DNA from: Promethearchaeum syntrophicum
Lineage (GTDB): Archaea > Asgardarchaeota > Lokiarchaeia > Sigyniarchaeales > Promethearchaeaceae
DNA: 32,000 nucleotides
Direction of reading: 5' to 3'
NCBI RefSeq assembly: GCF_008000775.2
Contig: NZ_CP042905.2
Span: forward strand, 2,520,001-2,552,000
The notes below the pieces were generated by a model, which saw only the letters and a list, made by a program, of their open reading frames with translations, had not been told where the DNA came from and did no database searches. The translations under genes were made by a program, and so were the position numbers. Below, piece by piece: positions 15,113 through 25,691 of this stretch; positions within the stretch are counted from its first letter, which is position 1, and each line of letters opens with the position of its first letter.

Positions 15113-16042
15113 ATGAAATTGTCTGAAACTTTCTCTGATTTCTTAATTGCAAAGGAAATTGAAGAGGGGTGTTCATCTTCAACAATTCGAGCATATTCTT
15201 ATGATTTAAAGATATTAGAGCGAGAATTAGGAGATCCTCATTTAAACAGTATTAAGATTTTTCATATTCGGAAAGTTCTAAAAATATTTTTTGATAAAAA
15301 ATATTCAAAACAAGCCATCGCCAGGAAAATCGCTTGCTATAAAAGTTTCTTCAATTTTTGCTATGAAAATGAACTGATATCTAAAAACCCAATGAAAGCG
15401 GTAAAAAGTCCTAAAATTCGACCTGAAGAGTCTTTACCAAAGTTTCTCTCACAACAAGAAGTAAGAGATATATTAAGTTTTTTAGAGGAAAATAAAAAAA
15501 TTCCTTATACGAGCAGAATAAGATTGACAATTATTATTCGTCTTCTTTACGCATCTATGGCACGAGTTAGCGAAATTAGTGCCTTGAAAGTATTTGATGT
15601 AAATTTCGATCAAAATCTTATTAAAGTTAGAGGAAAAGGAAATAAAGAAAGATATATCCCAATTGATTTACAGACAGCAAAATTACTTAGAATTCAAATA
15701 GAAAATCAATCTGTAATAAATAAAGATAAAAGCTCCTACTTATTTCTAAATAATCGAGGAACCCAGTTAAAACCAAGATCGATTCAACAAGATATACAAA
15801 ATTTGAAATTCTTATTAGGCTATTCAAATGATAAGAAATTGACACCTCATATCTTTAGGCATACAGGAGCAACCCATCTAAGACAAAATGGGATGGATAT
15901 TAGTGAATTGCAAGATATTCTTGGACATAGTAGCCCTAATACAACAAAAATTTATGCCAAAAACGATTTAAATAGATTAAAAAAGTCCTATATACATTAC
16001 CATCCTTTAGAGATAAGTAATGATGGAAAAGAAAGTTTTTAG
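15113..16042 (+). CDS. xerA: Tyrosine recombinase, XerC/D/XerA type
   Basis: N-terminal SAM-like core-binding domain ('TIRAYSYDLKILEREL'). Catalytic residues lie in 'ASMARVSEISALKVFDV', 'HIFRHTGATHL' and 'LGHSSPNTTKIYA'. Confidence 0.88.
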   Translation: MKLSETFSDFLIAKEIEEGCSSSTIRAYSYDLKILERELGDPHLNSIKIFHIRKVLKIFFDKKYSKQAIARKIACYKSFFNFCYENELISKNPMKAVKSPKIRPEESLPKFLSQQEVRDILSFLEENKKIPYTSRIRLTIIIRLLYASMARVSEISALKVFDVNFDQNLIKVRGKGNKERYIPIDLQTAKLLRIQIENQSVINKDKSSYLFLNNRGTQLKPRSIQQDIQNLKFLLGYSNDKKLTPHIFRHTGATHLRQNGMDISELQDILGHSSPNTTKIYAKNDLNRLKKSYIHYHPLEISNDGKESF

Positions 16043-18208: not shown

Positions 18209-19411
18209 ATGTCCTTACCGCCGAATATCTTAAATCGAATCATTCAAGAAAATAATGAGCGAGATGACTTAATTTTAGGAAAATTCGCATATCCGAATAA
18301 ATTGGCTAAAAGAAAACATGAAGAATCGCTTGATTATAGATCTATTTTTACTAGGGATGCAGATCGGATTATTCATAGCTTGTCTTTTGCACGTTATTTT
18401 GATAAAACCCAAGCTTTTTTCTGGGTTAATTCTGATATTCACCAACGCAGAATGTTACATGTTCAATTAGTTGCAAAAATTGCGCGAGAATTAGCGATTG
18501 TTTTAAATTTAAATCAAGATTTGGTTGAAGCAATTGCATTGGGTCATGATATCGGTCATGTTCCCTTTGGACATGATGGAGAAAAAATTTTAAGCAGACT
18601 GTGTAATAAACACGGGATTGGTGGATATTACCATAACTTAGGATCTATTCATTTTTTACAAGAAATCGAAATGCAAAATTTAACTCTCCCTGTAGTTGAT
18701 GGAATTCTATGCCACAATGGTGAAAAACACCATCGTATGTTATACCCTTCTCATATTGAACTTACTTGGGAAAATCATGAGAGAGAAATTCAAAAGTTAC
18801 TTGATAGTTCTGAAAAAAATATCTATCCTAAAACGTTAGAAGGGTCGTTAGTTCGTGTTGTGGATACTATTAGCTATATTTCTAGGGATATTTTAGATGC
18901 CGAGCATATGGGTCTATTAAAATTCAGTGATATACCTCAATCAGTTCAAAAAATATTAGGAAATACTAATCGTGGGATTATTAACTGTCTTATTTCAGAT
19001 TTAATTAAAAATTCTATCGATTGTAATTATATTGCATACAGTGAGGATGTTTTTAGTGCCTTAACCGAATTGTATTCGTTTAATTTAAATAGAATTTATC
19101 TCCATGAGGATAAGTTGCAACCTCTTAAAATAATTGAAAAAGCATTTGGAATTCTTTGGGATAAATATTATAATGATTTAACTCAAAAGAAAACCCAGTC
19201 AAAGATATTTGTAGATCACCTGGAATTGAATTTAAATCAAATCAAAACAAGGTTACCAAATATAAACTCTTTGGAAAAATATCCATATGCAAGACAAATG
19301 CCTGAAATAATAGTGCGCGATTTTCTCGCCGGAATGACAGATCAATATTTTTGGGAACTTGCAAGGGAAATTGATCCATCTTTAGTTTTTCACCCAGAAA
19401 CGGTTTATTAA
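18209..19411 (+). CDS. HD-domain dNTP triphosphohydrolase, dGTPase (Dgt)-like
   Basis: 'RSIFTRDADRIIHSLSFARYFDKTQAF', 'HQRRMLHVQLVAKIARELA' and 'AIALGHDIGHVPFGHDGE' match the Dgt/SAMHD1-type HD family. Confidence 0.88.
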   Translation: MSLPPNILNRIIQENNERDDLILGKFAYPNKLAKRKHEESLDYRSIFTRDADRIIHSLSFARYFDKTQAFFWVNSDIHQRRMLHVQLVAKIARELAIVLNLNQDLVEAIALGHDIGHVPFGHDGEKILSRLCNKHGIGGYYHNLGSIHFLQEIEMQNLTLPVVDGILCHNGEKHHRMLYPSHIELTWENHEREIQKLLDSSEKNIYPKTLEGSLVRVVDTISYISRDILDAEHMGLLKFSDIPQSVQKILGNTNRGIINCLISDLIKNSIDCNYIAYSEDVFSALTELYSFNLNRIYLHEDKLQPLKIIEKAFGILWDKYYNDLTQKKTQSKIFVDHLELNLNQIKTRLPNINSLEKYPYARQMPEIIVRDFLAGMTDQYFWELAREIDPSLVFHPETVY

Positions 19412-19530
19412 TTATCTTAAAATTCACACCAGTGGTTCGACTCGGAGAACGAATCGACTTACCCCTCAAACATTTGGTGGACGTTAGAGTTTTTAATAAA
19501 AAGATTGTAATCATCGTTTAATTAAAAAAT

Positions 19531-20349
19531 TTATTTCTTTGCATAGAGCATATATACTCCTGTGGCTGAAAATTTACCTTCTTTATCAGTAATTACGTTA
19601 AATCCTTTGCTTTTCAAAAGGGAAGTAATTTTTTCTAAAAGATTTTCACCACCTACAATATTTGTATGTACCTCCATTGCAATTTGTTTAATCAATTTCC
19701 AGTCGGATTCTGTTATACCTCGTAATATTTGCCACTCGTAATTTTCTGCATCCATCTTTAGAAAATCAATCGAGTTGACATTTGTTTCCTTAATGATGTC
19801 TGATAGAGGCCGAACTTTAATCGGGATTTTTACTCCTTTGAAAACATATTTATGGCCTAATTTAACAACTGTTTTTCTTAGAAATTTCGGTATAAATCGA
19901 GCTATTGGGCTTGTGATGGCCACAGTTTGATCCCAATTCTCAACAGAATTTTTTAATTCTAAATCAAAATCAATAGGGACTATTGCAGAGAGTGTAGTTG
20001 CTCGGGGATAATAGTTAATTTCAATAACCTTCTCAATATCTCCTAATCCAATATTATATTGATGAACTTCCCGTGTACTTGTTATAAATTCGAGATTTTT
20101 TTTTTGAATTTCAAAAACGTCTGGTACTGGCTCAAATGTATATATTTTTAGATTTTTTGCCTTTGTAGCAATAAAACGTGAAAAAATTCCCACATTTGCC
20201 CCTACATCAAATATAACATCCCCATCTTTTACTTTTATACCAAATTTTTCATACTCACGTTCATTAAATATCTCATTATAAGATTCAAGAGCAGAAATTT
20301 TATCAATATAATAGCAAGTTTCTCCATTTGGTAGTTTGCATGATTTCAT
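19531..20349 (-). CDS. FkbM-family SAM-dependent methyltransferase
   Basis: 'VIFDVGANVGIFSRFIA', 'IYTFEPVPDVFEIQKKNL' and 'IDFLKMDAENYEWQIL' are the FkbM (Methyltransf_21) hallmarks. Confidence 0.85.
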   Translation of the reverse strand: MKSCKLPNGETCYYIDKISALESYNEIFNEREYEKFGIKVKDGDVIFDVGANVGIFSRFIATKAKNLKIYTFEPVPDVFEIQKKNLEFITSTREVHQYNIGLGDIEKVIEINYYPRATTLSAIVPIDFDLELKNSVENWDQTVAITSPIARFIPKFLRKTVVKLGHKYVFKGVKIPIKVRPLSDIIKETNVNSIDFLKMDAENYEWQILRGITESDWKLIKQIAMEVHTNIVGGENLLEKITSLLKSKGFNVITDKEGKFSATGVYMLYAKK

Positions 20350-20419
20350 ATTTAAAACCTTTATTTTTGACCCTTTATTTCAACTTTTTACAAATATAAT
20401 AATAATCCTATAGTTAGAT

Positions 20420-21442
20420 TTAATCTTGAAATCTTCTTAAAATATGTTTCACATTTGTTGAAGTAAAAACACCGTTTCGTTTTAAATCTTTAAGAATCTC
20501 TTTAACTACGAGCATTCTACTTTCCTTATTATTCATCTGTTCAGTTTTTGTATAATTGAGGGTGTGATCAAATATTTCTGCAATATTTTCAGAACTAAGG
20601 ATTTTATACTGAGGATCAATTTTAGGTGGGTTCCAATCTTCCATAATTCTATCTTTAATCAATTTTTCATATTTATTATTTATTTCAAACCCAATTCCCA
20701 TTCTATTGGTCAAGCGAGTCATTTTTAAAGTGGTTCCAGATCCTAAAAAGGGATCTAAAACCGTTTCTCCTTCAATTGTATGCATCTTTATAAGTCGATA
20801 GGGGATATCTTCTGGAAATGGAGCACTATGCCCAAATTTATTTTCTCCTTTTGAATTTATTTTAATTATAGGTGAAATATCATCCCAAATCATCCTAACT
20901 GCCCAATGTCGCCATTCATCTTTTGATAATTTTGACTTTGAAAGCAACTTCTTATCTTCAATTTTTCTCGTTTTACCAGGTTTAACAAATGTAAATATTT
21001 GCTCGAAAGCAGTGTTGACGGCAATATTCGTCGGTTTTGGATAAGATCCCCACGATACGTTGTTAATATATGGAGCTTTATTCCAATAAACCATTCCACT
21101 TAGAAATAATCCTTCTTGGAACATGAATTTCTCAATTTCAAACATAATATTTTTAATTATTCTCCTATTAAAACCTGATTTTTCAGCAGAAATTGGTAAG
21201 GGTTGCACATTTATTGAAATTTTCCCGTTAGGTTGTAAAACACGAATACATTCCTTCCAAACTCGGTTCAAAGCATCAATATATTCTTGATATGATTGAT
21301 TAAAACCGATTTGAGTAGAACCATAATCTCTTACATTCCAATAGGGAGGAGAAGTAACGACAAGGGTAACAGACTCATTTGGGATTTGCTGCATGTTTTC
21401 CGATGATGAAAAATACACTTTTTGTTTCTGAAATGTAAACAT
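20420..21442 (-). CDS. Beta-class DNA methyltransferase (N4-cytosine or N6-adenine; N6_N4_Mtase family)
   Basis: Motif IV 'VVTSPPYWNVRDYG' is near the N-terminus and motif I 'VLDPFLGSGTTLKMT' lies ~200 aa later, which is the beta-class order. There is a ~85-aa C-terminal extension. Confidence 0.88.
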   Translation of the reverse strand: MFTFQKQKVYFSSSENMQQIPNESVTLVVTSPPYWNVRDYGSTQIGFNQSYQEYIDALNRVWKECIRVLQPNGKISINVQPLPISAEKSGFNRRIIKNIMFEIEKFMFQEGLFLSGMVYWNKAPYINNVSWGSYPKPTNIAVNTAFEQIFTFVKPGKTRKIEDKKLLSKSKLSKDEWRHWAVRMIWDDISPIIKINSKGENKFGHSAPFPEDIPYRLIKMHTIEGETVLDPFLGSGTTLKMTRLTNRMGIGFEINNKYEKLIKDRIMEDWNPPKIDPQYKILSSENIAEIFDHTLNYTKTEQMNNKESRMLVVKEILKDLKRNGVFTSTNVKHILRRFQD

Positions 21443-21559: not shown

Positions 21560-22303
21560 ATGCGAAAATTCTCAGAGGATCCTAATATTAAACCCGCAGA
21601 TATTCGGAAAGAAAAAATATTTGTAGCTATTATTACGGCGTTATTTTTAATTTATGTTTTAATTTGGAGTTTAGTCTATTCTTTTTCTGATGCGATGGCA
21701 ATTATGGGATTAGCCTTCTTTATTTTAGTGCCCGCTCTTGGTACTAATGGAATGATGGTTTTGTGTGGGAAAATCGGCAAAATCCCACGCTTTCCAATTG
21801 ACAATGGTAAAACATTCAAAGATGGGGAGCGAATTTTCGGAGATGGCAAATCTTGGAACGGGTTTATCGGCGGATGGCTTACGGGATTTTTAATTTCGGC
21901 TGCAATTTGTTGGTTTTTCTTTCTCAAAATCGCTGAAGCTGAAATGTATTCTGGATTTAAATTCATTGATTATGATTACATAAGGAATTTTATAAAACAT
22001 GTAATGAATCCTGATGGAACAATTCGTACATCATATTGGTTAAGTCAATGTTTTATTGCCTTAGGTTCTCCAATTGGCGATTTAATTGGGAGTTTCTTTA
22101 AACGTAGAAAAAAGGTTAAACGTGGCGAAGTTTATCTTTTCTGGGATCAAAACGATTTTGTTATTGTTTCTTCCTTAATTGCGTGCATTTGGTTTCCATA
22201 CCATTGGTATTTCTGGATTTTTGTGTTATTGATAACCCCAATACTAACCGCACTCGCAAATTGGGTAGGATACATAATAGGAAAAAAAGATGTACCTTGG
22301 TAA
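21560..22303 (+). CDS. carS: CDP-archaeol synthase (CDP-2,3-bis-O-geranylgeranyl-sn-glycerol synthase)
   Basis: The multi-TM protein carries 'PALGTNGMMVL', 'FPIDNGKTFKDGERIFGDGKSWNGFIGG' and 'GDLIGSFFKRRKKVKRGEVYLFWDQNDFV', characteristic of the archaeal CarS/DUF46 family. Confidence 0.88.
   Translation: MRKFSEDPNIKPADIRKEKIFVAIITALFLIYVLIWSLVYSFSDAMAIMGLAFFILVPALGTNGMMVLCGKIGKIPRFPIDNGKTFKDGERIFGDGKSWNGFIGGWLTGFLISAAICWFFFLKIAEAEMYSGFKFIDYDYIRNFIKHVMNPDGTIRTSYWLSQCFIALGSPIGDLIGSFFKRRKKVKRGEVYLFWDQNDFVIVSSLIACIWFPYHWYFWIFVLLITPILTALANWVGYIIGKKDVPW
22258..22302 (+). repeat. Direct repeat, left copy (attL-like); functional 3' end of carS
   Basis: This 45-nt stretch is 40/45 identical to 25126-25170, and the first 21 nt are identical. 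Confidence 0.9.
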
Positions 22304-22429
22304 TTCTTCTCAATTGATGGATTTATATAATTGTCTCATTAGTATAATGAACAATATTTAATTTTCTACTTAAATTGAATTTAAGAATTTTCCTAGAACT
22401 TTTTATATCAATTTATTTATATAAAGTAT

Positions 22430-24106
22430 ATGTTAGACGAAATAGGAATTGAGTATTTTAAAGGAATAAGACAGCTTGAAAAGCTTAAAATAAAACCAAT
22501 TACCTTATTTTGTGGGAAAAATAGTTCAGGAAAAACATCTATTTTGGAATCAATTCTTTTATTAAAGCAATCTTCAGAAAAAGCCCAATATTTTAAGAAA
22601 TTAATACTAAATGGAAAATACGTTCGATTAGGCGCCTTCAAAGATATATCATGGAATAACGATGAAGATGGAAAAATAATATTTAATTTTAAATTACGAA
22701 ATTTAGGGTGGAACAAAAGAAAGAAAAAAGATAGTGAATTTAGTGTTTTAAATTTAAAATTTCAAAGAAAAGATAATAAAACACTTTTTGATGATGTTAC
22801 ACTAAATCAAATTTTCCTAAAAATTAATGAAAAAGATGGAATTAAATCTATCAATATTGATACAAGTAACCCTAATAAAACTATCCTTAAATGGGATATA
22901 GGTAAGAATTTCCTCCTTGATATATCAAAACATCAAGGACAAATCAATTACCATGAAGAATATACGGAAAATTATTTTCAAGGTTTTCATGAATTCGAAG
23001 ATGCAATTATTTTCATTCGTAGAAAAAAATTAAAAATTGACGATCAACAATATTATCAAATAACCCAAAAGAAATATCATCTGTTAATAGAAAATAAGGA
23101 GAAATTCAAAAGCATTATTAAACAATTTCCAAATATTGAAGAAGAGCATATAAAAGATACAATATTTGAATTAAAAAATTTAGTAAAAGAAAGAACCCTT
23201 ACTGGTCGAATTAGATTTAGCCTTGACAAATTAGAAGAACAAATTAATTTAAAGAAATTGTTAGATAAAAAAACCATAAAACTGTATAAAAATATTTTAG
23301 ATAATATTGATGAGGAATTGATGAGTGATATCAATGATTTCTTTTATGAAATCTCAAGCGCAATTAATAAATTATCAAAAACCTTAAACAAAATATCATT
23401 CATTGGACCCCTCAGAGAAGAACCTTCATTAAGATATACTTGCGAAGACCAAAAACTTGAGATTGGAAATAGAGGTGAAAACGCTCCACTAATTTTTGAA
23501 AGTGAAAAAACACTGAAAACTAAAGAATTCTTTTTAATGGAACAAGGAAGGTTTAAAAAGCTTAGAAATAAAAAATTTTCCGAGATATGGAATCTTTGGT
23601 CAAAATACTTTAATTTTGGATTATTAAATTCAAAATCCACTTCAGATTCAATGTTTAGATTTAGAATTGATGAACACAATTTAAAACATGTTGGATTTGG
23701 AATAAGTCAAGTATTTCCAATATTAATCGAAGGTGTTAGAATTGAAAAAGGCGATACTCTAATTTTAGAACAACCTGAAATTCATCTCCACCCCGATTTA
23801 CAAATGCGGTTAGCAGATTTCTTTATAAGCATGGGTATTTCAGGTAGAAATACAATTATTGAGACCCATAGTGAACACATTATTAATCGAATTGTTCGTC
23901 GAGTTGTAGAGGATAATACTCATAAACTCATAGACCTTATTGCAGTTTATTTTGTAAATATGGGAAAAAACGGACTTGAAATTGAGGAAATAAAGATTGA
24001 TCATAAAGGAATCGTCAATTGGCCAAAAGGATTTTTTGATGAAGCAATGAGGGAACAATCTGCAATAATAAAAAAAATAAGAGAAAATAAAAATAAAGAG
24101 GAATGA
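22430..24106 (+). CDS. ABC/OLD-type AAA ATPase (AAA_15/21-like) with DUF3696-like C-terminus
   Basis: Walker A 'GKNSSGKT' (22514-22537), 'IGPLRE', signature-like 'VGFGISQVFPIL', Walker B/D-loop 'TLILEQPEIHLHPD' (from 23756), H-loop 'ETHSEH' and terminal 'WPKGFFDE'. A ~220-aa K/E/N-rich insertion lies between Walker A and the rest of the NBD. Confidence 0.85.
   Translation: MLDEIGIEYFKGIRQLEKLKIKPITLFCGKNSSGKTSILESILLLKQSSEKAQYFKKLILNGKYVRLGAFKDISWNNDEDGKIIFNFKLRNLGWNKRKKKDSEFSVLNLKFQRKDNKTLFDDVTLNQIFLKINEKDGIKSINIDTSNPNKTILKWDIGKNFLLDISKHQGQINYHEEYTENYFQGFHEFEDAIIFIRRKKLKIDDQQYYQITQKKYHLLIENKEKFKSIIKQFPNIEEEHIKDTIFELKNLVKERTLTGRIRFSLDKLEEQINLKKLLDKKTIKLYKNILDNIDEELMSDINDFFYEISSAINKLSKTLNKISFIGPLREEPSLRYTCEDQKLEIGNRGENAPLIFESEKTLKTKEFFLMEQGRFKKLRNKKFSEIWNLWSKYFNFGLLNSKSTSDSMFRFRIDEHNLKHVGFGISQVFPILIEGVRIEKGDTLILEQPEIHLHPDLQMRLADFFISMGISGRNTIIETHSEHIINRIVRRVVEDNTHKLIDLIAVYFVNMGKNGLEIEEIKIDHKGIVNWPKGFFDEAMREQSAIIKKIRENKNKEE
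24098..24101 (+). promoter_or_regulatory. Shine-Dalgarno-like site for the TTG-initiated second cassette gene
   Basis: 'gagg' lies 9 nt upstream of TTG 24111, within the last codons of the ATPase gene. Only 4 nt separate the stop from the start. Confidence 0.45.
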
Positions 24107-24110
24107 CAAG

Positions 24111-25091
24111 TTGATTAAAGCCATCGCAATTCCTGGATTTTTTGATATTGATTCGAATGCATTTCTTGAAGAATGGGGTGATTGGATAAATGAATTCGAA
24201 ATAAAAATTGATATTCCATTAGAAAATTATAACAATCTTTTTAAAATGTTATATGAAGAGGAACCAAGTCATAAAATTGGAATAATGACACAAGTCTTAG
24301 CAAAAATATTTAGAAATTTAAGCTGTAAAAATCATCAGTTGAAACCGTGTGACTTTTCTTTAAGAGTTTCTTTGAAAAATGATTTTCTTGAGTTCATTCA
24401 TGGATTTTTACATAAAAATAATGATGAACCATTCATTTTACTCTTATCTCACCTTGAATGTGGAGATTTAAATACTACTTATTCTTGTGCGTGTTCAAGT
24501 TTAAAACCTTGTACCAAAATACGAATAATTCAAAATATTGACGATTTAAAATCGGAATTAGTAAATTTATGGAATATCCAAGTACATTTAGCTATTGAAA
24601 GAACACCCCCTTCAAGAAGAGGAAGAACTGAAGATTTAAAGTATTATTCAAAAATCTTCTTGAAATTCTTAAATAATAATGAATTAAATCTTCATTACAA
24701 ATATTTAAAAAACGTTGAAGCTTTGTCTGATGAAGATATACTTAAAGAGATGCTAAACCTTGGAATAAGCGAGACACATAGAGTAGATTTAGTAACAATC
24801 CATTCAAATCAAGAAATGATTTTCATTGAAGCAAAAAGTGATTCAAGTTTTGATTCTCTTAAAGATAAATTTCGTTGTACAAAAAATTTTATTGAAAAGT
24901 ATAAAAATGATTCATTTCCTACATTAAAAGCAATCGGAGTTATTCATAACGATCATTTCATTCCTAAGAAATCTCATTCCTGTAAAAATGGAATTCTTTA
25001 TAAAAAAATTTCAACTAAACAAGAAAAAATGGTAGATTCTCATAATATCCCTTGGCATATGTTTAACGAACGAAATTTAAGGAAAAATTAA
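24111..25091 (+). CDS. Hypothetical protein with C-terminal PD-(D/E)xK-like nuclease motif
   Basis: 326-aa ORF (TTG start). 'GISETHRVDLVTIHSNQEMIFIEAKSD' (24771-24836) gives E221...D226...E240-x-K242 with restriction-endonuclease-like spacing. There is a Cys/His cluster 'HLECGDLNTTYSCACSSLKPC'. The N-terminal ~200 aa are unrecognised. Confidence 0.65.
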   Translation: MIKAIAIPGFFDIDSNAFLEEWGDWINEFEIKIDIPLENYNNLFKMLYEEEPSHKIGIMTQVLAKIFRNLSCKNHQLKPCDFSLRVSLKNDFLEFIHGFLHKNNDEPFILLLSHLECGDLNTTYSCACSSLKPCTKIRIIQNIDDLKSELVNLWNIQVHLAIERTPPSRRGRTEDLKYYSKIFLKFLNNNELNLHYKYLKNVEALSDEDILKEMLNLGISETHRVDLVTIHSNQEMIFIEAKSDSSFDSLKDKFRCTKNFIEKYKNDSFPTLKAIGVIHNDHFIPKKSHSCKNGILYKKISTKQEKMVDSHNIPWHMFNERNLRKN

Positions 25092-25125: not shown

Positions 25126-25170
25126 AAATTGGGTAGGATACATAATTGGAAAAAAAGAGGTCCCATGATA
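25126..25170 (+). repeat. Direct repeat, right copy (attR-like); displaced remnant of a carS 3' end
   Basis: In the carS frame it reads NWVGYIIGKKEVP*, versus NWVGYIIGKKDVPW* in the live gene. No upstream carS sequence is attached to it. Confidence 0.9.
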
Positions 25171-25175
25171 GTTTT

Positions 25176-25691
25176 CTAAGAGTCTGATTTACAATAAGGG
25201 CATATTTCTTGAGAGGCTTTTATTTCAGACCCACAAAACGGACAATATTGCCTCTGAACATCGGTATCTGGATTATTTAATATATTATCAAATCTTTGAG
25301 CAATTTCCAGATATTCTGGGGTTTTTCGATTTTGAAATTTTACGTGGTCGATGTTCATGCTTTCTGCCCATTTTTTCATAATTTCATCAGGAAATTTCCA
25401 AACAGCCCCTTTCCCAAGAATACTAAATTTAACCTCAACTAAAACTAAGGTAGTCTTTTCATCTGGAAGATACCCAAATTTAAGCTTGAAAGTTTGACCA
25501 CTTGATGTTCCATAAATTTTCATGGTAATTCCATGTTTAAAAACAAAAACACGGAGTAAATCATTAGCAGAACTCTTTTGTTCAATTATTTCTCCATTTC
25601 TACTTTCCCAAAACATTGAATTTTTCGACCAAATTTCATCTATATCCAAATTCAATACATAAAATCCATATTTTTTCGGCATTTTTTCCAC
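25176..25691 (-). CDS. Hypothetical protein with C-terminal zinc ribbon
   Basis: 171-aa ORF (GTG 25691, or ATG 25682). It ends 'CPFCGSEIKASQEICPYCKSDS' (CxxC-x9-CxxC). Confidence 0.6.
   Translation of the reverse strand: MEKMPKKYGFYVLNLDIDEIWSKNSMFWESRNGEIIEQKSSANDLLRVFVFKHGITMKIYGTSSGQTFKLKFGYLPDEKTTLVLVEVKFSILGKGAVWKFPDEIMKKWAESMNIDHVKFQNRKTPEYLEIAQRFDNILNNPDTDVQRQYCPFCGSEIKASQEICPYCKSDS

Follow-up and report, generated by a model that had tools for sequence, protein, structure and literature searches.

A two-gene DUF3696 ATPase module with an orphan partner, a candidate PD-(D/E)xK nuclease, on a mobile insert of the Asgard archaeon Promethearchaeum syntrophicum

The Menshen defence system consists of NsnA, NsnB and NsnC (Millman et al. 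2022; analysed by Li et al., NAR 2025, PMC12065111). Its ATPase, NsnB, departs from canonical ATP-binding cassette (ABC) ATPases in that the Walker B D-E dyad is replaced (by E-N in the S. silvestris protein), an R stands for the Q of the Q-loop, SGG has become GxG and a DUF3696 helix is present at the C-terminus; pairs of DUF3696 clamp the N-terminal domain of NsnC in 23 of 24 AlphaFold 3 models, and the NsnC slot downstream of DUF3696 ATPases is polymorphic (Li et al., PMC12065111). HEC-03 is a two-gene system of an ABC ATPase and a PIN protein that protects E. coli, both genes being needed (Payne et al., bioRxiv 10.1101/2024.01.29.577857), and HEC-02 is a validated pair of an ABC ATPase and a NERD/PD-(D/E)xK protein. 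Here we describe two adjoining genes, gene 1 and gene 2, in a 32,000-nt stretch (the window) of the genome of Promethearchaeum syntrophicum, a Lokiarchaeial Asgard archaeon; gene 1 encodes an ATPase with a DUF3696 tail and gene 2 a protein of a very small family. We favour, with moderate confidence, a reading in which the pair forms a defence-type module of two genes, directed against mobile elements and belonging to the DUF3696/NsnB-HEC-03 class, with gene 2 as the effector, most likely a PD-(D/E)xK DNase. A first-pass annotation of this DNA, made from the letters alone, had called the module undescribed, which is too strong given that the ATPase falls in the NsnB/HEC-03 clade, that HEC-03 and HEC-02 have been validated and that the partner slot is known to be polymorphic. 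What is new is the orphan effector family, the absence of NsnA and the archaeal host; the ATPase class was already known. A survey of Asgard defence systems (PMC11291487) mentions neither Menshen nor the present locus.

Gene 1 belongs to the NsnB (Menshen)/HEC-03 class of ABC ATPases. Its best match in PADLOC is NsnB (9.6e-59), followed by the HEC-03 ATPase model PDLC04148 (5.3e-46), PDC-M55A (4e-36) and AriA (8e-25), so that all of its best matches there are models of defence systems; PHROG adds phrog_21420 (2.5e-64), and Pfam gives AAA_15 (3e-23), AAA_21 (1e-12) and DUF3696 (9e-8, residues 504-542), in agreement with the clade and the tail assigned in the first pass. The motifs on which that assignment had been based are all present, among them the terminal WPKGFF at residues 531-536, and the motif set is invariant across an alignment of 12 gene 1 homologues, which is the sample behind all statements on motif conservation in this protein (Table 1). 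Gene 1 carries every deviation that is specific to NsnB: LILEQPE with an E-Q in place of the Walker B D-E dyad, GPLRE with its R for Q, GFG, and NWPKGFFD in the tail. The Pfam scan also bears out the earlier statement that gene 1 has no nuclease domain of its own, since it finds neither a TOPRIM nor any other nuclease domain there, and TOPRIM is found in neither protein by Pfam or PADLOC. The names of the HEC-03 components are inverted between sources, HEC-03B being the ATPase and HEC-03A the PIN protein in PADLOC-DB 2.0 (PDLC04147, PDLC04148) and the reverse in the preprint.

At 558 aa, gene 1 is considerably longer than the classical NsnB that we find beside an NsnA-like gene (333 aa, at the locus labelled L034), and it has a much larger Insert-1. 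The NsnB profile covers gene 1 in two stretches and skips approximately residues 60-268, an excess of about 210 aa over that profile and of about 60-90 aa over the 500-aa bacterial homologues; the extra alignment columns are specific to Lokiarchaeia. The ratio of non-synonymous to synonymous substitution rates (dN/dS) relative to the orthologue in Loki's Castle is 0.25 for gene 1 as a whole, which indicates purifying selection, and 0.12 for the ATPase core, with Insert-1, at 0.38, the fastest-evolving part of the ATPase. The large insertion noted in the first pass is therefore real, but two of the properties then ascribed to it are not: its share of charged residues is similar to that found elsewhere in the protein (K+R 18% vs 16%; D+E 16% vs 15%), and a likeness to SMC/Rad50 proteins can be set aside, since it sits at Insert-1 and not at the coiled-coil Insert-2. 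We propose that this enlarged, fast-evolving Insert-1 may serve as a sensor surface.

Gene 2 follows 4 nt (CAAG) after the TGA stop codon of gene 1 (24104-24106), and both open reading frames (ORFs) have, in the ORF list of the window, the coordinates and lengths first given for them. The 4-nt spacing, the TTG start and the GAGG upstream of it are likewise all present in the sequence. Purine-rich stretches occur at the place equivalent to the GAGG in the homologous loci, and all three homologues of gene 2 have ATG at the position of the TTG (compare the N-termini ATGATTAAAGCC and TTGATTAAAGCC); because the homologues have ATG exactly there and the encoded N-terminus is conserved, we take the TTG to be the true start. 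The two genes are thus arranged as in Menshen, with the effector gene immediately downstream of the ATPase gene and translationally coupled to it. As its TATA-like boxes suggest, the non-coding leader of the insert probably holds an archaeal promoter, from which a leaderless mRNA or one with a short leader would be made, and the similarity of this leader to that of the Loki's Castle copy starts only at 22395. A sigma-70 promoter scan is uninformative for an archaeal host.

None of Pfam, PADLOC, NCBIfam and PHROG yields a match to gene 2. Among 5.8 billion proteins, a word-indexed search returned gene 2 itself and two relatives only, and a fourth member was recovered from its neighbourhood at locus L002 (44% identity, E = 8e-90). 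A profile of the four found no sequences beyond the family in the word-indexed search, an exhaustive hmmsearch of 1.84 billion representatives gave only three clusters, all of the gene 2 family, and metagenome, viral, plasmid and phage collections yielded no further gene 2 loci. The family therefore has four members, all of them Lokiarchaeial, and each directly abuts or overlaps an upstream ATPase gene of 558-591 aa that belongs to the same subclade as gene 1. Identities to the P. syntrophicum proteins co-vary, at 69, 50 and 48% for the ATPase and 66, 44 and 44% for the partner. The earlier description of a tightly coupled ATPase and separate effector stands, with co-inheritance in all four known instances. 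With a dN/dS of 0.46 relative to the Loki's Castle orthologue (0.37 for its C-terminal domain), gene 2 is under purifying selection and is thus a real gene. In the N-terminal half of gene 2 all four members share an invariant C80, H97, C128 and C134, and an extra cysteine lies at 124 or 126 (window about 24348-24512); residues 80-134 may form a metal-binding cluster in this unmodelled part of the protein, for which the AlphaFold2 model has a predicted local distance difference test score (pLDDT) of 25-37. The idea that the N-terminus is an inactive PIN (inPIN) domain as in NsnC is positional only, because hhalign shows no similarity.

We consider it rather probable that the C-terminal domain of gene 2 is a PD-(D/E)xK nuclease, on the strength of a conserved motif, the order of secondary structure elements, sub-threshold hidden Markov model (HMM) matches and non-significant Foldseek matches. 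The first pass had recognised an E...D-x13-E-x-K pattern, of which D226-x13-E240-x-K242 is indeed invariant; the conserved upstream acidic residue is E213, in the helix before the D226 strand, and all four residues (E213, D226, E240 and K242) are invariant in the four members at 44-66% identity. Both AlphaFold2 runs, one on the full-length protein and one on the C-terminal domain, predict a helix at 207-216, strands at about 225-231 and 235-242, a helix at 247-264 and a strand at 271-279, which is the expected alpha-beta-beta-alpha-beta order, with D226 and E240/K242 on consecutive predicted strands. Below threshold, Pfam models HSDR_N_2 (0.012) and PDDEXK_4 (0.047) are each found in one of the four members. 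When the full-length model was compared with the PDB by Foldseek, approximately 40 of the top 50 matches were PD-(D/E)xK nucleases, representing about 11 distinct proteins, albeit without significance; they include the cap-snatching endonucleases of arenaviruses and bunyaviruses, both BspD6I subunits, Can2 and McrC, as well as EcoO109I, Kpn2I, DdmD, the HerA-associated DUF4297 protein and EndoMS. Bunyavirus and arenavirus L proteins recur among the matches in BFVD, none of which is significant.

Several observations weigh against this assignment, or against the defence reading as a whole. The first glutamate of the original pattern (E221) is not conserved. The AlphaFold2 models of full-length gene 2 and of its C-terminal domain are both poor, with a mean pLDDT of 46; the Foldseek matches never fall below E = 0.01, their template modelling (TM) scores are <0.3 throughout, and the C-terminal-only model returns noise. 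No PD-(D/E)xK HMM reaches significance for gene 2, and a PDB sequence-profile search with the full-length and C-terminal sequences gave no PD-(D/E)xK match, the best match being the helix-hairpin of an unrelated NAC domain at E = 0.35. Neither the NsnC nor the HEC-03 HMMs of PADLOC match gene 2, and comparisons of the whole protein, its N-terminal half and its C-terminal half with a bacterial family of ~290-aa partners (see below) and 14 other partner clusters gave hhalign probabilities <1%. As regards gene 1, the natural E-Q Walker B may mean that ATP hydrolysis is slow or absent, and the immediate neighbours of the pair in this window are housekeeping genes and not a defence island.

It is unlikely, in our estimation, that gene 2 is instead a non-catalytic adaptor or sensor, with an inactive restriction endonuclease (REase)-like or other alpha/beta fold, and that the pair acts by ATP-dependent sequestration or by recruitment of a host factor. 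While gene 2 has no significant HMM or structural match, as this alternative would have it, the slot 3' of DUF3696 ATPases holds effectors in every characterised relative. NsnA does use inactive REase domains as DNA sensors, but those domains are specifically without the motif. A pattern as short as D-x(n)-E-x-K could occur by chance, yet the three catalytic-type residues and E213 are invariant among proteins of 44% overall identity; and the NAC-like helix-hairpin pattern, seen at E = 0.35 and 0.15, has threonines at the positions of D226 and E240.

The pair can be compared with named systems at several levels. With Menshen it shares an NsnB-type ATPase that has the DUF3696 tail, an EQ/EN Walker B, R for Q and GxG for SGG, and, as far as the effector slot is concerned, hypervariability; it cannot be called Menshen, as the gene upstream is carS and not NsnA (ParB-DUF262 plus ParBDB), and no DUF262 gene lies upstream at any of the four Lokiarchaeial loci. 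Gene 2 shares position and coupling with NsnC, which has an N-terminal inactive PIN and a C-terminal effector domain, but matches no NsnC model, and an active PD-(D/E)xK effector is absent from the 15 described C-terminal families of NsnC (PMC12065111). That survey covered bacteria only, whereas the host here is archaeal. Like the present locus, HEC-03 is a two-gene operon that encodes a DUF3696-class ATPase and a separate effector and lacks a third gene for a sensor, and its ATPase model matches gene 1 less strongly than does NsnB; the pair is not HEC-03, however, because the partner is not a PIN protein, the HEC-03 partner being VapC-like and gene 2 having no HEC-03 or Pfam PIN match. HEC-02 would share the control of a separate PD-(D/E)xK-fold nuclease by an ABC-type ATPase, but the ATPase is of a different clade, gene 1 matching HEC-02A at 2e-8 over the N-terminal 53 residues only, and gene 2 has no NERD match. 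In PARIS (AriA/AriB), Septu (PtuA/PtuB) and Gabija (GajA/GajB), as would be the case here, the nuclease effector is under the control of an ABC ATPase oligomer to which it is bound; those effectors are TOPRIM or HNH proteins, which gene 2 does not resemble, as the first-pass annotation had said, and the ATPases have no DUF3696 tail, the GajA and Old models matching only the ends of gene 1 (1e-8 to 1e-10). Lamassu, with its SMC-like LmuB and a Cap4-type nuclease effector, follows an ATPase-nuclease logic that the pair would share, probably with a different ATPase clade.

The pair is an accessory locus. It lies in an insert of 2,868 bp bracketed by a 48-nt direct repeat, the two copies of which are 88% identical overall and wholly so in their first 21 nt. 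In three metagenome-assembled genomes (MAGs) of sister Promethearchaeum the site is empty, carS being followed directly by the downstream genes, and their carS 3' ends align with window position 25126 (L010 from 3991, L013 from 1364). These junctions define an insert that contains only the two genes, no further ORFs being present, and so the proposal that the pair is the sole cargo of a mobile insert is upheld. An orthologous pair in Loki's Castle (L042-L045) has 77.5% DNA identity, with homology confined to 22395-25084, that is, the operon, and is found at another site, the 3' end of the gene for ribosomal protein L24e (rpl24e). On either side stands one copy of a 213-nt direct duplication (L043:30-242 on the left and L042:1772-1984 on the right), about 80% identical in its coding half and 100% identical in the distal 106 nt. 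Neither the carS insert nor the Loki's Castle insert contains an integrase or transposase, and at L001 and L002 the search for flanking direct repeats gave AT-rich chance matches only. Integration at a tRNA gene was considered and rejected, the window being without a tRNA. As to an accessory and defensive function, the first part is supported by the insert itself, and the copy at L001 has an adjoining integrase-like gene and, nearby, an HpaII-type restriction-modification pair and an OLD-TOPRIM gene; the second part is not helped by the housekeeping surroundings at the P. syntrophicum site.

The insertion patterns at carS and rpl24e fit a single Campbell-type crossover by a circle of ~3 kb carrying a diverged end of the target gene, the cargo having acquired a different att-like arm at each site. 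They also bear on the possibility, which we regard as distinctly unlikely, that the pair is mainly selfish, either as an addiction cassette of toxin-antitoxin type or through self-promoted Campbell-type integration of a ~3-kb circle with a captured host-gene 3' end. The cargo does occur at two sites, the carS and rpl24e 3' ends, each with a duplicated target end and no integrase or transposase inside, the DNA homology between the copies is limited to the operon, and AAA_21 is annotated as an AbiEii-type toxin domain. Self-mobility is, however, known for no member of the NsnB/HEC-03 class; recombinases acting in trans, or formerly in cis, are a simpler explanation because an integrase-like gene adjoins the pair at L001; and only two flanked insertions are known, that of Loki's Castle being on short contigs in which repeats may have affected assembly. 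A more specific proposal, for which we hold out very little expectation, is that the two-gene ~3-kb unit would itself be a minimal integrative element, the pair supplying or stimulating recombination instead of, or besides, defence; the circle would then hold no more than the two genes, for the ATPase and the PD-(D/E)xK protein, with a 3' end captured from a host gene, and would integrate in Campbell fashion at the 3' ends of different essential genes, carS and rpl24e. If true, Asgard archaea would possess a kind of mobile element without a recombinase. A cargo-only insert at two gene 3' ends presents a concrete puzzle as to how defence genes move in Lokiarchaeia.

The distribution of the pair also bears on whether it could be a housekeeping complex for DNA repair or recombination similar to Rad50-Mre11, SbcCD or RecF/RecN, which we strongly disfavour. 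The N-terminus of gene 1 gives weak matches to SMC_N (1.6e-4, below threshold) and RecF (7.7e-8, far under the curated cut-off), and SbcCD likewise joins an ABC ATPase to a nuclease. But the pair is missing at this site in the three sister genomes and is found at other sites in other genomes, the gene 2 family numbers just four, the best matches of gene 1 are all defence models, and gene 1 has no coiled-coil Insert-2.

Outside Lokiarchaeia the closest relatives of gene 1 are DUF3696 proteins of ~500 aa, with >6,000 matches at E <1e-10, to which gene 1 is 33-37% identical over the whole alignment and about 45% identical over the C-terminal half. At the four such loci that we inspected, in Aeromonas, Aliarcobacter, Methanoperedens and Vicingaceae, the ATPase gene is followed by an abutting gene of ~290 aa and there is no NsnA upstream. 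Together with 28 IMG/VR loci, the inspected loci comprise 34 DUF3696-type ATPases, every one of which has an abutting downstream ORF of 150-350 aa on the same strand; the 31 partners sort into 16 clusters by sequence. Of 17 partners taken as representatives, two match the HEC-03 PIN model (6.6e-76), several match NsnC models (2e-54; 1e-11 for that of L017, which is in a two-gene context) and one matches Ntox17. An upstream NsnA-like gene with DGxQR is seen only at L034, the locus with the short ATPase. Since the partners vary and some match HEC-03 PIN or NsnC, the slot 3' of DUF3696 ATPases is a polymorphic effector slot, which confirms what Li et al. describe for NsnC. Two-gene DUF3696 modules that lack NsnA and have hypervariable partners are thus common in bacteria and on viral contigs, and most of these partners are unmatched in PADLOC-DB 2.0.

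One partner family from this survey deserves separate mention. The ~290-aa family (L004-L008, L014-L016; alignment A3) is widespread, occurring in Aeromonas, Aliarcobacter, Methanoperedens and Vicingaceae and on viral contigs, and has a conserved C-terminal R-x-R…RIH…YYGEGEHDDGL and no Pfam or PADLOC match; by eye, its C-terminus resembles a RelE/BECR RNase. The ~500-aa ATPase and its ~290-aa partner look like an uncatalogued Menshen-like two-gene system without NsnA. Like the P. syntrophicum pair, these modules consist of two genes that abut or overlap, and they lack NsnA; they differ from it in the partner, which has no profile similarity to gene 2. A further partner, of 332 aa, on a viral contig (L027:5701-6699) has a C-terminal GEVDLLVECQNEPYAIIEGLIV that is PD-(D/E)xK-like in look and is unrelated to gene 2 in sequence.

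Table 1. Positions in the window of the pair, its motifs and the boundaries of the insert
Feature	Position	Strand	Remarks
carS (CDP-archaeol synthase)	21560-22303	+	Pfam CarS-like 6e-27
Left direct repeat, attL-like	22258..22305	+	functional 3' end of carS (…NWVGYIIGKKDVPW*)
Non-coding leader of insert	22306..22429	+	AT-rich TATA-like boxes tttttatatc / ttatttatataaag <=30 nt from the gene 1 ATG
Gene 1	22430..24106	+	558 aa, ATG start; NsnB/HEC-03-class ABC ATPase with C-terminal DUF3696 tail
Walker A GKNSSGKT	22514..22537	+	residues 29-36, K35; G29, N31, S32, G34 and K35 invariant
Enlarged Insert-1	22610..23389	+	about residues 61-320, between Walker A helix and R/Q-loop
IGPLRE	23402..23419	+	residues 325-330; R for the Q-loop glutamine; G326, P327, L328, R329 and E331 invariant
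VGFGISQ	23690..23710	+	residues 421-427; GxG variant of the ABC signature motif
Walker B LILEQPEIHLHP	23759..23794	+	residues 444-455; D-E dyad changed to E-Q; L446 to P455 invariant
H-loop ETHSEH	23861..23878	+	residues 478-483
DUF3696 C-terminal helical tail	23939..24055	+	residues 504-542, including NWPKGFFD; N530, W531, P532, F535, F536 and D537 invariant
GAGG, Shine-Dalgarno-like	24098..24101	+	9 nt 5' of the gene 2 TTG
Gene 2	24111..25091	+	326 aa, TTG start; orphan partner, hypothetical protein DSAG12_02847, putative effector
Gene 2 C-terminal domain	24681..25088	+	residues 191-326; candidate PD-(D/E)xK nuclease core
Candidate catalytic residues	D226 24786-24788; E240 24828-24830; K242 24834-24836	+	with E213
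Right direct repeat, attR-like	25126..25173	+	decayed copy of the carS 3' end (NWVGYIIGKKEVP*), encoding a near-intact remnant (…GKKEVP*), contiguous with the ancestral downstream flank

A full-length, XerA-like tyrosine recombinase (15113-16042, + strand; Phage_integrase 2.6e-40, with an N-terminal SAM-like domain) lies 6 kb 5' of the insert, and between the two is a 400-aa HD-domain protein (18209-19411, + strand) that is possibly dGTPase-like. An FkbM-family methyltransferase (ORF 19531-20349, - strand; Methyltransf_21 1.6e-17) is situated in a segment, 19412-20418, that is absent from the sister Promethearchaeum MAGs L009 and L010; as the flanks join directly in both, the segment, of about 1 kb and 2 kb 5' of the pair, is the second strain-specific indel here. 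The N6/N4 DNA methylase at 20420-21442 (- strand; 3e-41) has no adjacent restriction enzyme and is beside carS in all five Lokiarchaeial loci, including that of Lokiarchaeum ossiferum; it is apparently a conserved orphan methyltransferase and no part of the insert. Just past the right repeat, a 171-aa protein with a C-terminal zinc ribbon (25176-25691, - strand) is present in L010 and L013 and missing from L009, and its gene is therefore another small presence/absence polymorphism at the junction.

For a two-gene defence module, the preferred reading of the pair, a mechanism can be drawn by analogy with the NsnB4-NsnC2 models, PARIS, Septu and Gabija. The gene 1 ATPase would probably oligomerise, with paired C-terminal DUF3696 tails holding the gene 2 protein in the manner of the NsnB4-NsnC2 AlphaFold 3 models, and the enlarged, fast-evolving Insert-1 would probably sense the invader, replacing the separate NsnA of Menshen. 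Gene 2 would contribute a lineage-specific N-terminal adaptor region and a C-terminal probable PD-(D/E)xK DNase acting through E213, D226, E240 and K242. Sensing of an invader would alter ATP binding or hydrolysis, and the nuclease would in turn be released or activated; the natural E-Q Walker B hints that the switch may lie in the binding of ATP and not in its rapid hydrolysis. If this mechanism is true, the Menshen/HEC-03 class of immune modules reaches the Asgard archaea, where it would work without the NsnA sensor, presumably sensing via the enlarged ATPase insert, and would gain an effector family that is found nowhere else among about 15 billion proteins.

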